Part shown: in pieces, positions 22,155 through 50,326 of the stretch | Layout: every line of letters begins with the position of its first letter | Position numbering within the stretch: position 1 is the stretch's first letter | From: an uncultured Acidimicrobiales bacterium | GTDB taxonomy: Bacteria > Actinomycetota > Acidimicrobiia > Acidimicrobiales > SHLQ01 | Assembly: GCA_938038785.1 (NCBI GenBank) | Contig: CALHTB010000054.1 | Coordinates: 465 to 64,464 of the forward strand | Length of the DNA stretch: 64,000 nt | Direction of reading: 5' to 3' | Made by a program: the position numbers and the translations under genes | Notes under the pieces: generated by a model | The model's database searches: none | What the model was told of the DNA's origin: nothing | What the model saw: the letters and a program-made list of their open reading frames with translations, nothing else

Positions 22155-22190
22155 TGGGTCGCCCGGGCCTTACCAGCCGCGGGCGACCCA
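22155..22190. terminator. Possible hairpin terminator at the convergent gene junction
   Basis: 11-bp inverted repeat tgggtcgcccg / cgggcgaccca; no U-tract. Confidence 0.35.
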
Positions 22191-22793
22191 GTCGTCGAAG
22201 TGCGGCTTTTCGGTGCCGATCGTGGTGTCCTCGCCATGGCCGGGAAGCACCAAACAGTCGTCGCTGAGGACCTTGTAGAACCGGTCCTCGATCGAGTGCA
22301 TGATCGTGGCGAAATCGCCGCCTTCGAACTTGGTAGCGCCCGCGCCGCCGGGGAAGAGGGTGTCTCCGCTAAATAGAATCGGAGCGCCTTCCAGCTTGAA
22401 ACTCATCGACCCGGGCGTGTGTCCCGGGGCATGAATCGTCTGCAGCCGGAGACGGCCAACTTCGATCATCGTGTCGTCCTCAAGGATCTCGTCATAGCTG
22501 TCGAGCATCGACGAGTCTTCCTTCGTGACCCCAACGGAATACCCGGCGTTGCGCATCTCGGGAATGGCGGCGATGTGGTCCCAATGGCCGTGGGTTTCGA
22601 CGATCCGTCGCACATTCAGCGCCTTGGCCAGCTCGAGCAGCTTCTCGTGTTCGTTCGCAGCGTCGATAAGCAGACTCTCGCCGGTCTCGGTGCAGCGCAA
22701 GACAAAGACATTGTTGTCGACTGGACCCACAACGACTTTGTGAATCTCGAACCCGGTGTCGGCGTGATGGAGCGTGCTCGTCAGATCGATCAT
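22170..22793 (-). CDS. MBL-fold metallo-hydrolase (glyoxalase II-like)
   Basis: THGHWDH, PGHTPG, FSGDTLF, PGHG motifs. Start at MIDLT, with TAGTGT 7 nt upstream. Confidence 0.92.
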   Translation of the reverse strand: MIDLTSTLHHADTGFEIHKVVVGPVDNNVFVLRCTETGESLLIDAANEHEKLLELAKALNVRRIVETHGHWDHIAAIPEMRNAGYSVGVTKEDSSMLDSYDEILEDDTMIEVGRLRLQTIHAPGHTPGSMSFKLEGAPILFSGDTLFPGGAGATKFEGGDFATIMHSIEDRFYKVLSDDCLVLPGHGEDTTIGTEKPHFDDWVARGW

Positions 22794-22880
22794 GGCTACG
22801 ACACTAGCCATTGCCGTCTTCGCTAGTGACGGCGTCATGGGGAACCGTGCGTGGAGATGCTGTCGCAAGTAGATCAAAAA

Positions 22881-22918
22881 GTTGCCCGAAACGGTCAACC
22901 TTGACCGTTTCGGGCAAC
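22881..22918. repeat. Perfect 18-bp-arm palindrome downstream of the DUF559 gene
   Basis: gttgcccgaaacggtcaa-cc-ttgaccgtttcgggcaac. Confidence 0.95.
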
Positions 22919-22931
22919 ATTTCGCATTGGG

Positions 22932-23876
22932 CTAGGCCGCGGGCAGCTCGATTCCCATCAACGCAGCTCGGCGCCGAGCAGCCGCTGCAAACTGGCGAAC
23001 GAAGGCGGCTGCGTCGGAGGTTTGGGACCACGTCACGTACAACAGCTGCCACCCTTCGGTTGTAAGGGCGAGGTCACGCACATTGTCAGCGTCGACCTGA
23101 TCGGCTCGCCAATGAAACGACCGACTGTGGGCCTCGACCCCAAGCTTTAACGCAGGGCAGGCGATGTCGATGCGATATCGGCGGCCCTGCACTGCCAGCT
23201 CGTGCTGCAGAATGATCGGTGGCATCCAGGGAAGGCTGACGAGGTCGGCAACGACTCGCTCGAACCAGCTATCGGTAACACCAGAAACTCGCTTGGGGTG
23301 TTCGAGCACTTTTTGAAGGGCGGCTACACCACCAGGGTTCCGAGAACCGAGGCGGTCCATAGTTTGCTCAAGCCAGCGCATCGAGTCGGTGCGAAGAAAC
23401 TCGTCCAAACAGCGCTCGAGCACGTTCGTCGGCACATGTGGCCCGAGCGAGCACAATGTGGCAGCTCGATTCAACGACCGGATGTGAGACACCGTCGTGA
23501 CATCGACAGCCGGGTCGATTTGATTCCATCGCTTTAGCTCGGCCGTCGGGTGGTTGCGGGTTCTGGTCGACGGCACCCAAAGCTGCGGGAGGCTTGGCGT
23601 TTCATTCACCCACCCGTGGAGCCAAGCAGCAGAAGTTGTCGTCGCTGCAGAGCGCTCGACCGATAGCGTCGCGCCGCGCAATTCCTGCTCTGCTGATCGG
23701 GGTAGCGCCACCACCGCCCAGACCTTCGGGTGCAGGCGATAGACGTGTCTCTCGAGCTCCGCCCGGCGGAGTCGACGGATGTTTATGGACTTTTCGGCGG
23801 CCTCGGCTGAATGCACTGCGTTATGTCGGGAGGCTGCGAACTCGACAAACGCACTAAGTGCCTTGTCGTACTGCAT
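22932..23876 (-). CDS. AbiEi-like / DUF559 (Vsr-like PD-(D/E)XK endonuclease) domain protein
   Basis: C-terminal SWFE...RYRIDIACPALKLGVEAHSRSFH...DNVRDLALTTEGWQLLYVTW is a typical DUF559 pattern. The N-terminal region resembles actinobacterial AbiEi-type proteins. Start at MQYDK. Confidence 0.8.
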   Translation of the reverse strand: MQYDKALSAFVEFAASRHNAVHSAEAAEKSINIRRLRRAELERHVYRLHPKVWAVVALPRSAEQELRGATLSVERSAATTTSAAWLHGWVNETPSLPQLWVPSTRTRNHPTAELKRWNQIDPAVDVTTVSHIRSLNRAATLCSLGPHVPTNVLERCLDEFLRTDSMRWLEQTMDRLGSRNPGGVAALQKVLEHPKRVSGVTDSWFERVVADLVSLPWMPPIILQHELAVQGRRYRIDIACPALKLGVEAHSRSFHWRADQVDADNVRDLALTTEGWQLLYVTWSQTSDAAAFVRQFAAAARRRAALMGIELPAA

Positions 23877-23882
23877 GCCCGC

Positions 23883-23904
23883 ACCATACGAGCGTGGTGT
23901 GACA
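23883..23904 (-). promoter_or_regulatory. Putative PafBC/RecA-NDp-type promoter, leaderless
   Basis: Minus strand reads TGTCAC-ACCACGCTCG-TATGGT-GCGGGC-ATG. Confidence 0.6.
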
Positions 23905-23925
23905 CGACTGCACTTACCCAAAACC

Positions 23926-23971
23926 AAATGTTGCCCGAAACGGTCAACCTTGACCGTTTCGGGCAACATTT
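23926..23971. repeat. Perfect 22-bp-arm palindrome upstream of the DUF559 gene; core identical to 22881-22918
   Basis: aaatgttgcccgaaacggtcaa-cc-ttgaccgtttcgggcaacattt. Confidence 0.95.
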
Positions 23972-24002
23972 CGGCTGGATTCGGGCCAGCAGGCCCGGCG
24001 AA

Positions 24003-24998
24003 CTACCGCGAGTACTTTTCGTGCTTGGTGAGTTGGTGTTGGCCTTCGATGAGACGCACGGTGCCCGACTTTGATCGCATGACGAGCGACTGGGTGTGGG
24101 CAACACCGCGCTCGTAGCGGACGCCTTCGAGCAGGTCACCGTCGGTAATGCCGGTCGCAGCGAAGAAGCAGTTGTTTGAGCTCACAAGGTCGGAGATATG
24201 CAACACCTTCTTGAGGTCGTAGCCGGCTTCGATTGCCTCGTTTCGCTCGGCTTCGTTGCGCGGCCACAGCATTCCCTGCTGCTCGCCACCCATGCACATA
24301 AGCGCCGCAGCCGAGATAACACCTTCGGGCGTTCCACCGATTCCGAACAGCACGTCTGCGCCCGAACCGCGCCACGCCGTCGAGATTGCGCCGGCGACGT
24401 CGCCGTCAGAGATGAGGCGGATTCGAGCACCGGCGGCTCGGATCTCATTGATGAGCTCGCCATGGCGATCGCGGTCGAGGATCACGGCGGTGAGGTTCTC
24501 GACGGCCTTGTTCTTCGCTTCGGCAATGGCGTGCAAGTTCTCGGTAGGGGAGCGAGTGATGTCGATAGAACCGGCGGCGTCGGGGCCAACTGCGATCTTC
24601 TCCATGTACACACAAGGGCCCGGGTCGAACATCGATCCGCCCTCGGATGCAGCGATGACGGCGAGTGCGTTGGCTCGGCCGAGTGCGGTCAGGGTGGTGC
24701 CGTCGATTGGGTCGACCGCAATGTCGACCTTCGGCGGTTCGCCGTTGCCGATCTGCTCGCCATTGAACAGCATCGGCGCTTCGTCCTTCTCGCCCTCGCC
24801 AATGATGACCGTGCCGTCCATAGCGACCACGGACAGCTGGCTACGCATAGCGTCGACGGCCGCGCCATCGGCTGCGAGCTTGTCGCCTCGGCCCATAAAT
24901 CGGGACGCAGCGATTGCCGCAACCTCGGTTACTCGAACTAGCTCGAGGGCCAAGTTTCGATCGGGGTTCGTTCGGTTGGACGATGTTGGGTCCGACAT
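24003..24998 (-). CDS. glpX: Class II fructose-1,6-bisphosphatase
   Basis: [39 protein letters not shown] motifs; AGGAG RBS before MSDPT. Confidence 0.96.
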
Positions 24999-25095
24999 GA
25001 TGACTCTCCTGCGCAGTGCCATCTGCATCTGCACTATTGCTATCGGCAGTTCCCGCTCCGGCGTAACCGCCTCGAAGAGAGTAGCTTTCCTTCTC

Positions 25096-25911
25096 ATGTC
25101 AACCATGTATTGCTTCCAATGCGCCCGCGAGTACGTCGAAGATGTGGTCGAGTGTTCCGAGTGCGGTGTGGGCTTGGTCGAAGACAAGCCAACGCCGCCA
25201 GATGAGGTCGGCGGGGCTGAAGACCCGCAGGTCGCATACGAGCTATACGAGTGGTCATTTGAAGCTCGCCGCATGCTCGAAGGGCTCCTCACCAGTGAGG
25301 GGATTCCCCACGGTTGGCAGGGCGCGGTGTTGATCGTGCTCGAAGCAGACGAGAGCCGTGTCGACGCTCTTGCCGAGCAAGCAGAACAAGCCGATGGGCC
25401 GATTCTCGATGACGACGTCGAGAAAATTGGCTACGACATGGAGGAGTGGTCGGCCGAGGCCCAGTCAGCTCTCGTCGATGCTCTGGGTCTTGCTGGTGTA
25501 GCCCACATGTTCTCAGCGGAGGGCGAGCTTCTTGTTTCCGAGGAGAATGAAGAGCAGGTCGACGAGATCATCGACCAGGTCACCGAACGCATCGCAATCG
25601 ACGACTCGTTGGGTGAAGCCAACCAGGTCGTCGAAGGGCTCAAGCTCAACGACTTGCTGGGTGACGTTCGAGTGCTGGCAAACAAACTGGTCAAGAACGC
25701 GGGCGACGCGAAGGCCACGCTGGCCATGGTGAAGAAGGCCGAGCTCCTCGCCGATGTGAAGACGCCGTTCGGGTTCGACAGCCGCAAGTGGTCACGGATT
25801 CGCCTTCGGGCCACCCAGATGCACGAGACGCTTGCCGACGAAGATCGTGACGAAGAGCTTGTGAACGAGGCTGCGGCGGGCCTTTCCCAGGAACTGCAAG
25901 AAGTTGTTTAA
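25096..25911 (+). CDS. Hypothetical protein with N-terminal zinc ribbon and duplicated small domain
   Basis: YCFQC...CSECG, with internal repeat YELYEWS / YDMEEWS. The ORF-track extension overlaps glpX and is discarded. Confidence 0.75.
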
Positions 25912-49622: not shown

Positions 49623-49679
49623 CCTTTATGGGGCCTGTCCCCATAAAGGTGTCTTTACGGGGACAGGCCCTATAAAGAC
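49623..49679. repeat. Inverted REP doublet downstream of the RAYT
   Basis: cctttatggggcctgtccccataaagg and gtctttacggggacaggccctataaagac. Confidence 0.92.
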
Positions 49680-49686
49680 GTTCGCG

Positions 49687-50256
49687 TTAGCCGGCAATTT
49701 GGTCGTCTTCGCCGAAGTTGATGGTCGGCGTTGCTTCGTTGAAGAGGCGAAAGCTCGCTTGATCATTGCCGAAGAGACCCAAAAGTAGGTCGGTGCACAT
49801 CCACTCGGGGGAGTGGGCTAAGCCGAGGTAGATACCGAAGCTCGACCACCGGTACGTGTCGAGCTCGGTGACACCAATGTCCTTCGGGTTTTGGTGGACG
49901 TATCGAACAGCGCTCATTAGATAGGGCTCGCTATCGATTGGGCTGTTGAAGAACCGGTCCTTGCAGAGCCTGCCGTCATAGCCATACCGGCGGTTGATGG
50001 CAGTGGCGTAACACATACCAATCCAGTGCATGACGTTCGACATGTTTCGCTCAGGGAACTGCGCGATGAGGTGGTAGTGATTGCCCATCAACGCGAATGC
50101 ATGGATGATGACACCGAACTTCGTGTGCGCCAGTCCAAGCAAATGTAGGAATAGATCTCGATCGATGTCGTCGAGGTAGATGTCGGATCGCCGCGCCCCA
50201 CGGTTTGTGATGTGGTGGAACTCAGCTTCGGGTTGATTGCGTGGTTTTCGTGCCAT
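49687..50256 (-). mobile_element. REP-associated tyrosine transposase (RAYT, IS200/IS605 Y1 HUH superfamily)
   Basis: MARKPR...HHITNRG, LMGNHYHL (HUH), RYVHQNP (catalytic Tyr), YRWSS; flanked by REPs. Confidence 0.92.
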
Positions 50257-50262
50257 TTCGCC

Positions 50263-50284
50263 ACCGTACGTGGCGGGTGTGACA
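50263..50284 (-). promoter_or_regulatory. Putative PafBC/RecA-NDp-type promoter, leaderless
   Basis: Minus strand reads TGTCAC-ACCCGCCACG-TACGGT-GGCGAA-ATG. Confidence 0.6.
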
Positions 50285-50301
50285 CGACGTGCACGAATCG
50301 G

Positions 50302-50326
50302 CTTTATGGGGACAGGCCCCATATAG
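50302..50326. repeat. REP element upstream of the RAYT
   Basis: ctttatggggacaggccccatatag. Confidence 0.9.

Follow-up and report, generated by a model that had tools for sequence, protein, structure and literature searches.

A Vsr-Like Nuclease Gene Enclosed by Two Identical Hairpins in a Marine Acidimicrobiales Genome: A Candidate Counterpart of the REP-RAYT Systems

The Hairpin-Bracketed Nuclease Gene

The DNA analysed in this work is a stretch of 64,000 nt (the window; positions 465-64464 of contig C54) from G000, a metagenome-assembled genome (MAG) of a marine Acidimicrobiales bacterium, which comprises 3.67 Mb in 134 contigs, is 73% complete and has a G+C content of 61%. In this window, a single gene for a putative nuclease is enclosed by two identical palindromic sequences and is located between the gene for a metallo-beta-lactamase-fold hydrolase (MBL) and glpX, both of which lie outside the palindromes and are encoded on the same strand as the nuclease. 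The cassette and its hairpin are referred to here as the C54-type. The analysis of related loci suggests that this gene and its hairpin form a partnership resembling that of repetitive extragenic palindromes (REPs) with the REP-associated tyrosine transposases (RAYTs), built on an unrelated nuclease.

The two copies of the 44-nt sequence, which the original prediction had placed in the same orientation at 22881 and 23930, proved to be an exact pair with 0 mismatches on the plus strand, and none of 100 dinucleotide shuffles gave a match. A chance origin of this repeat, as well as of the repeats flanking the paralogs described below, was ruled out by the shuffles and by a control with random segments. 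Each copy contains a 38-nt palindrome made of 18-nt arms and a central CC, which folds into 17 pairs with a 4-nt loop, and the pairing of the right copy extends to 22-nt arms, in agreement with the perfect hairpins that had been predicted. As single-stranded DNA, the hairpin unit gave a folding energy of -23.9 kcal/mol (z = -8.8, 200 shuffles). The search of the hairpin against Rfam returned no match reaching the gathering score. The two copies are spaced 1049 nt apart and enclose one open reading frame (ORF) together with the 53 nt upstream of it. The downstream hairpin starts 7 nt past the stop codon of the nuclease gene and the upstream one lies 29 nt past the stop codon of glpX (Table 1).

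Table 1. Features of the nuclease cassette and its host flanks (window positions).
Feature	Position	Strand	Description
Downstream hairpin copy	22881..22924	-	38-nt palindrome and 6 nt; exact 44-nt repeat; followed by TTTTTGATCT on the sense strand
Nuclease gene, 314 aa from the ATG at 23876	22932..23876	-	Predicted AbiEi-type winged-helix module fused to a Vsr/DUF559-like PD-(D/E)XK nuclease
53-nt spacer from the upstream hairpin to the start codon	23877..23929	-	Contains the -10-like TATGGT at 23883-23888
Upstream hairpin copy, 22-nt arms	23930..23973	-	Exact 44-nt repeat; followed by GGTTTTGGGT on the sense strand
Metallo-beta-lactamase-fold hydrolase (MBL), host flank	22170..22799	-	Pfam Lactamase_B, E 6e-22
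glpX fructose-1,6-bisphosphatase, host flank	24003..25100	-	Pfam FBPase_glpX, E 8e-139

The domain content of the window protein was examined by several methods. The scan against Pfam gave only sub-threshold matches, to MTES_1575 (22.3 bits at a cut-off of 38.2) and to AbiEi_1 (18.2 bits), and no match to DUF559; no NCBIfam family was matched. Meanwhile, the AbiEi models of PADLOC matched residues 6-178 (E 4e-7), and a family profile built from 39 homologs led to the DUF559 structure 3hrl (E 7e-8), to the catalytic domain of I-Bth0305I (3r3p, E 1.6e-6) and also to PvuRts1I and Vsr. The AlphaFold2 model of the protein reached a mean confidence (pLDDT) of 93.6. In Foldseek searches, its residues ~1-200 resembled AbiEi (6y8q, E 1e-7) and Rv2827c (1zel), and the rest of the model resembled 3r3p (TM score 0.74-0.77, normalised by target), PvuRts1I, AbaSI and Vsr. 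The catalytic-type residues D237, E248 and H255 are invariant across the 39 homologs; the window protein carries EAH at the place at which ELD is found in most paralogs. The prediction of a homodimer scored 0.39, the mark being 0.42. As judged from the profiles and the model, the window protein is thus predicted to be a complete AbiEi-type DNA-binding module (residues ~1-200) followed by a Vsr-like nuclease domain (~200-300). The Vsr-like PD-(D/E)XK C-terminus proposed earlier was therefore recovered, the assignment coming from profile and fold (3hrl, 3r3p) and not from Pfam. The architecture is clear in the nine intact paralogs of G000, in which an N-terminal AbiEi_4 match is followed by a C-terminal one to MTES_1575/DUF559; four of the nine pass the DUF559 cut-off of 20.6.

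As expected from the original prediction, no recombinase or transposase domain was detected in the window protein by the Pfam, NCBIfam and PADLOC scans, and Pfam gave no Y1_Tnp match to it. With no such domain found and no near-identical copies of the element, the locus does not have the marks of an insertion sequence or transposon. The same prediction held that a toxin-antitoxin annotation fails to explain the flanks. This stood in part: the annotation has a real basis in the AbiEi module of 180 residues, and no gene for the AbiEii nucleotidyltransferase adjoins, the neighbours being the MBL gene and glpX.

The 53-nt spacer was examined for expression signals. The sequence TATGGT lies 6 nt ahead of the ATG, and the ortholog in the sister genome G019 has TAAGGT at the same position, the remaining spacer being different. 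A scan for the sigma-70 consensus found no promoter. We infer from its position that TATGGT may serve as a -10 promoter element; of the earlier statement that the hairpins enclose one gene with its promoter between MBL and glpX, the gene and its neighbours were confirmed and the promoter keeps this conditional standing. Since TATGGT is only 6 nt before the ATG, the leader of the nuclease mRNA is probably very short or absent. On the minus (sense) strand, each of the two hairpins scores as an intrinsic terminator; together with TATGGT, they give the cassette the look of an insulated expression unit. At the window locus, the hairpins probably also terminate transcription, which would insulate the cassette from glpX read-through. 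T-tails, judged by eye, do not follow the hairpin of every paralog.

A different signal precedes other members of the family. An inverted repeat CTTCCCC...GGGGAAG is located directly before the start codon of six paralogs (C71, C31, C127, C34, C44 and C121), in which the CTTCCCC arm would pair with the Shine-Dalgarno-like GGGGAAG and hide the ribosome-binding site. The window gene and the C1 paralog are without this repeat and have TANNNT 6 nt before the ATG.

Flanking and Solo Hairpins Across the Family

To the question whether paralogs carry their own cognate palindromes, G000 itself gave an affirmative answer. The tblastn search revealed 10 further family loci, 19-61% identical in an alignment of the paralogs (the closest paralog being at 61%), one of which is frameshifted (C60). 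Repeats are present on both flanks of all 11 loci and their sequence differs from locus to locus. Exact flanking direct repeats of 15-59 nt were found at nine of the 11 loci, and the remaining two (C44, C7) have 11-nt direct and 15-17-nt inverted matches. Among 3000 random 940-nt segments of G000 used as a control, 39 (1.3%) reached a direct repeat of at least 15 nt. The blastn repeat units at the paralogs are palindromic and 27-86 nt long; the upstream units stop ~40-60 nt ahead of the start codon, the downstream units start in the range from 30 nt ahead of the stop codon's last base to 50 nt past it, and the cassette period is 980-1060 nt. Compensated stem changes were seen in the C71 solo, the C121 pair and the L043 pair. 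Among non-syntenic paralogs, the most alike proteins (C7/C64, C71/C127) have the most alike hairpins. No hairpin family was found with two cassettes in one genome.

The arrangement extends beyond the source genome. In G019, all six family loci have flanking repeats. A search with the window protein as the query gave ten loci in further Acidimicrobiales records, of which seven have flanking repeats (two of the seven belong to G019), one is borderline, one has none and one is without its upstream flank. The family profile matched 88 of 151 sampled Actinomycetota genomes, a tally that includes six unpublished ones, usually several times per genome. When the best locus per genome was taken from the phylum sample, a flank repeat (E <= 1e-3) was detected in 12 of 29 (10 of 24 without the unpublished genomes), against five of 300 random segments. 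The concern raised with the original prediction, that homologs might generally be unflanked, therefore holds for part of the phylum sample and for none of the loci of G000 and G019.

Copies of the hairpin also occur away from the gene. The C54-type hairpin occurs in G000 as the two flanking copies, one intact solo (C71:48096-48133) and one decayed copy (C91), and in G019 as two solos, so the genome-wide search proposed earlier did yield solo copies. In the C71 solo, an A-to-C and a T-to-G change compensate each other. Because the solos are few, an abundant terminator or REP that came to lie beside the gene by coincidence was ruled out as the identity of the hairpin, which has just 3-4 copies genome-wide. 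Nine of the 11 hairpin families have 1-8 solos. At up to 3 mismatches, the C54-type hairpin is present in two of 26 genomes of the genus, G000 and G019, which are exactly the carriers of the gene. Of the 10 occurrences of the C1-type hairpin in G000, eight are solos, with differences of 0-1 in 31 nt; the 25 other genus genomes, all of which are without the C1 cassette, have none. Around two solo hairpins, homology stops within ~30 nt of the hairpin. In a collection of metagenome contigs, the exact and the degenerate hairpin patterns each gave 0 matches.

Two settings of the solos deserve description. The C1-type solos are grouped in mosaic clusters together with further palindromes, RAYT-type ones included. 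Such clusters, which resemble bacterial interspersed mosaic elements (~250-400 nt, several hairpin modules), recur on at least six contigs and in two places bracket single ordinary ORFs, as named by reading the translations a GNAT-like one (184 aa) and an endonuclease III-like one (221 aa); the two places are G000:C11:121360-124390 (L100) and G000:C47:62983-66013 (L101). The C71 solo (region G000:C71:47950-48140, L003:1355-1545) comes directly after a tRNA gene and its terminator. Beside this tRNA, G019 has a 2.2-kb insert with a repeated tRNA 3' end flanking it; in G009, the same tRNA is 4.3 kb from the conserved right flank. The tRNA next to this solo is an island integration hot spot.

A natural swap was found at one orthologous site, occupied by cassette C121 in G000 and by cassette L059 in G019. 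The host flanks are alike up to the outer hairpin edges, and the DNA inside is only 36-76% identical. The nuclease domains share 47 of 54 residues; the first ~120 aligned residues are ~43% identical. Both hairpins have been replaced, including the one adjoining the conserved 3' end, and their stems differ between shared AAAATTT...AAATTTT ends. At this site, the N-terminal part of the protein and the hairpin thus vary together. The solos mostly match the resident cassette type in each genome: the G019-type arm is represented in G019 by two flanking copies and three solos and in G000 by one copy, and the G000-type arm has 13 arm matches in G000, corresponding to ~8 hairpins (two flanking and ~6 solos), and one in G019. 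A related hairpin variant is also carried by G009, a genome assembled as a single contig. Judged from these sequences, the swap is the strongest indication that the N-terminal module would read the hairpin and that the solos would depend on the resident gene.

The comparison of the window gene with its G019 ortholog gave a dS of 0.37 and a dN/dS of 0.098. The 38-nt core is identical in the four flanking copies of G000 and G019, except for one central CC flipped to GG, and the spacer to the start codon is heavily changed. The protein and the hairpin are both under purifying selection.

The site between MBL and glpX is occupied only in G000 and G019. Both genes are held by 11 of the 18 loci of other relatives, in which the interval measures 9-192 nt and contains no hairpin. 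As these intervals and 24 of the 26 genus genomes are without the hairpin, it must have arrived with the gene. The earlier proposal to compare this interval in relatives for an empty site or a solo hairpin thus led to cassette-free intervals, with intergenic DNA too diverged to show the insertion edges, and to no solo hairpin. At the sites of C1 and of the G019 cassette on C23, other genes are present in the compared genome.

Two further observations concern this interval. In G019, an extra ORF of ~190 aa (L016:918-1505, on G019:C71), absent from G000, directly adjoins the left hairpin on its MBL side; from the end of this indel to the hairpin there are no more than ~15 nt. In L024 (G024:C5), the otherwise empty MBL-glpX interval contains two copies of a different palindrome, of the GGGGTCTGACCCC type, which also flanks a RAYT-like gene on contig C15 of G000.

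The locus was also found, as contigs only, in three marine metagenome DNA runs of one study, and no RNA run is listed as containing it. The hairpins are points at which these contigs break, and a related strain or a paralog is the source of some joints and variant contigs in these runs. Over window positions 23028-23406, one run has a second contig with 33 differences in 379 nt at ~1/7 of the depth, which represents a co-occurring related strain or species.

Five RAYT-like Y1 genes of G000 served as an internal positive control: each of the five is flanked by its own different, shorter palindromes. None of these RAYT-flanking palindromes resembles a nuclease-flanking hairpin of the same genome. 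One of the five genes is in the window itself, on the minus strand, with the Pfam Y1_Tnp match at 49891-50214. Copies of a palindrome-bearing 22-nt repeat of its own flank this gene at ~49627-49648 and 50302-50323, so that gene and repeats together span window 49627-50323 (G000:C54:50091-50787), and the palindrome core occurs 29 times in G000. The other four, each with its own palindromes, are on C37, C88, C96 and C15.

A Candidate Mechanism and the Competing Explanations

We consider it somewhat probable (about 0.6) that the cassette is a REP-RAYT-like system built on an unrelated nuclease, in which the palindrome would be recognised by the winged helix, cut by the nuclease and repaired by the host. 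The likeness to RAYT-REP layouts with a different nuclease fold had been predicted, and the solos, the palindromes of the paralogs and the MBL-glpX interval support it. For this reading we infer binding, cleavage and repair-based copying as follows. The locus belongs to a family of self-contained cassettes of ~1.05 kb, each consisting of a hairpin, a short promoter region, the nuclease gene and a second hairpin. The AbiEi-type winged-helix module would recognise its own palindrome, either as a duplex or as an extruded hairpin, and the Vsr-like domain would nick or cut at it. Host repair of these breaks could keep both flanking copies alike by gene conversion, would occasionally flip the loop and would sometimes copy the hairpin module into new intergenic sites, giving rise to the solos. 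PD-(D/E)XK enzymes cannot rejoin DNA themselves, and any copying of hairpins would therefore have to use host functions.

Several observations weigh against this reading. The correlation between protein and hairpin similarity among ten G000 paralogs is weak (rho 0.28-0.31, Mantel p 0.02-0.04). Solo numbers are low overall (0-8), families C127 and C44 having none, and the co-occurrence of gene and hairpin was established on few closely related, incomplete and non-independent MAGs. G000 is rich in other palindromic repeats besides its five RAYT-like genes, and its repeat clusters bracket ordinary ORFs as well; bracketing by repeats is therefore not special in this genome, and what is special is the specificity of the pairing. 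In the phylum sample, 17 of the 29 loci have no flanking repeat at the threshold used, which makes the arrangement common and not universal. Signs of movement are also scarce. Five of the six G019 cassettes are syntenic with cassettes of G000, and the L040-L043 subgroup is syntenic across four genomes; as the paralogs have diverged to the extent given above, there is no sign of recent gene transposition. In the compared genomes, neither a clean empty site nor a hairpin-only site was found for any cassette, and in the contigs of the three metagenome runs no joint skips the 1049-nt unit. The gene cassette, which has no near-identical copies, looks vertically inherited and not actively mobile, and the best reading of the system is that it is long-lived rather than actively jumping. 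Besides the frameshifted C60 of G000, one broken copy was found in G019 (C23:7368-8251).

The palindromes could, with a lower probability that we would still call appreciable, belong to the autoregulation of a stand-alone toxin or defence nuclease. The AbiEi-type part would be the repressor, the upstream palindrome its operator and the downstream one a second operator, perhaps acting by looping, or a terminator; the solos would be extra binding sites or relics, and the nuclease would target, e.g., phage DNA and would neither make nor move hairpins. AbiEi antitoxins bind inverted repeats in their own promoters, and the 180 N-terminal residues match AbiEi models and structure. The repeat hiding the ribosome-binding site in several paralogs would suit the tight repression of a harmful product, and the co-variation of the N-terminal part with the hairpin fits operator recognition equally well. 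This explanation meets its difficulty in the hairpins themselves: arms of 17-24 bp kept perfect by compensated changes go far beyond what a winged-helix half-site needs, and with its end 54 nt from the start codon the upstream copy does not reach into the presumed core promoter. It also leaves unexplained the identity of the downstream copy and the near-identical solos spread over many contigs only in gene-carrying genomes, and the AbiEii partner does not adjoin.

Less probable still, and in our opinion unlikely, is that the hairpins are host terminators or REPs moved by RAYTs, which were duplicated as a long target duplication when the nuclease gene was inserted; the hairpins of the paralogs would then differ simply because each target differed. 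Both hairpins are indeed terminator-like on the sense strand, the five RAYT-like genes of G000 are accompanied by repeat families of tens of copies, and the C1-type solos are clustered with RAYT-type palindromes in arrays that also bracket ordinary genes. Against this explanation, the 11 empty MBL-glpX intervals and 24 of the 26 genus genomes are without the hairpin, and the palindromes beside the five RAYT-like genes are unlike all hairpins that flank the nuclease genes. At non-syntenic loci, the most similar proteins (C7/C64, C71/C127) go with the most similar hairpins, and target duplication would not be expected to make the solos of G000 and G019 reciprocally match the cassette type of each genome.

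A homing-type selfish gene, whose nuclease would cut cassette-free alleles or solo hairpins and whose cassette would be copied by repair with the hairpins as homology arms or target, is the least probable explanation: the catalytic domain resembles the homing endonuclease I-Bth0305I, the cassette is in two genus genomes and absent from the same site at 11 loci of relatives, one cassette (C121/L059) was replaced between the hairpin edges and broken copies exist, but no hairpin family has two cassettes per genome, insertion would leave the hairpin target intact and thus confer no self-immunity, and a resident that is maintained would account better than a cycling invader for the long synteny and the strength of purifying selection.

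A bolder form of the REP-RAYT-like reading can be advanced only tentatively, and we would not count on it: repeat-associated enzymes may have evolved independently a second time, the AbiEi-Vsr fusions forming a class of them that is widespread in Actinomycetota. Each enzyme would create, maintain and slowly spread its own family of long DNA hairpins without transposase chemistry, by cutting at the hairpin and leaving the copying to host repair, and the winged helix would set the hairpin specificity and could be exchanged along with the hairpins.

Relation to Known Systems and Significance

The system that the cassette resembles most in its layout is that of the REP-RAYT pairs (REPIN; TnpA_REP), described in the available parts of PMC8266576 and bioRxiv 10.1101/2021.07.10.451892. 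In common with them, the nuclease gene is present in a single copy between palindromes of its own, of which more copies are dispersed in intergenic regions; the repeat family differs from paralog to paralog, the gene and the repeat family co-occur across genomes, and the association persists vertically for a long time. The enzyme differs: a RAYT is a Y1 HUH transposase, whereas the present protein joins a Vsr-like PD-(D/E)XK domain to an AbiEi-type winged helix and cannot form the covalent intermediate by which RAYTs cut and rejoin DNA. The repeats differ as well, as the nuclease hairpins are 38-60 nt long and present in 1-10 copies, whereas the RAYT palindromes of G000 are ~20-30 nt long and present in tens of copies.

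IS200 elements have an upstream terminator hairpin and a stem that hides the ribosome-binding site. The IS200/IS605 elements are comparable to the cassette in being compact (~0.7-1 kb), in having one gene and in the equally oriented hairpins close to their two ends, and several paralogs have both an upstream terminator hairpin and a stem over the ribosome-binding site. Unlike these elements, the cassette has no Y1 transposase and no near-identical whole-element copies, and its two hairpins are full copies of one sequence.

The nuclease part shares its catalytic fold and sequence profile with I-Bth0305I (EDxHD), Vsr and DUF559 (3r3p, 1cw0, 3hrl), and the available part of PMC3424549 places Vsr, DUF559 and the I-Bth0305I-type homing enzyme in one PD-(D/E)XK family. 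In contrast to I-Bth0305I, the gene is not located in an intron or intein, its product has an AbiEi-like DNA-binding part, and the bracketing palindromes are intact, the target not being split. The MTES_1575 domain was defined as a Vsr-type domain of giant defence proteins, according to the available part of PMC3710099. The N-terminal part (residues ~1-200) resembles the AbiEi antitoxin of the type IV AbiE systems (6y8q; Rv2827c, 1zel) in fold and profile, but here a nuclease fused to the module takes the place of an AbiEii partner, and the neighbours of this solitary gene are housekeeping genes.

In the literature searched, which did not extend to subscription journals, no paper was found in which palindromes, flanking or dispersed, are connected with DUF559, Vsr-like or AbiEi-domain genes. 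To our knowledge, no resident bacterial nuclease other than those of the REP-RAYT pairs has been described as living with a palindromic-repeat population of its own. If the reading proposed here is true, there would be a second partnership of this kind on an unrelated nuclease fold, and such a lifestyle would have arisen repeatedly in evolution. The very common "DUF559 / AbiEi-domain" family, the members of which are now annotated as antitoxins or unknown, would then have a function, and one class of the intergenic hairpins and synteny breakpoints seen in actinobacteria would be explained. The natural protein-hairpin pairs, including the one swapped at a single locus, are material for studying how a winged-helix module reads a long palindrome, and they might serve as programmable hairpin-specific nucleases.

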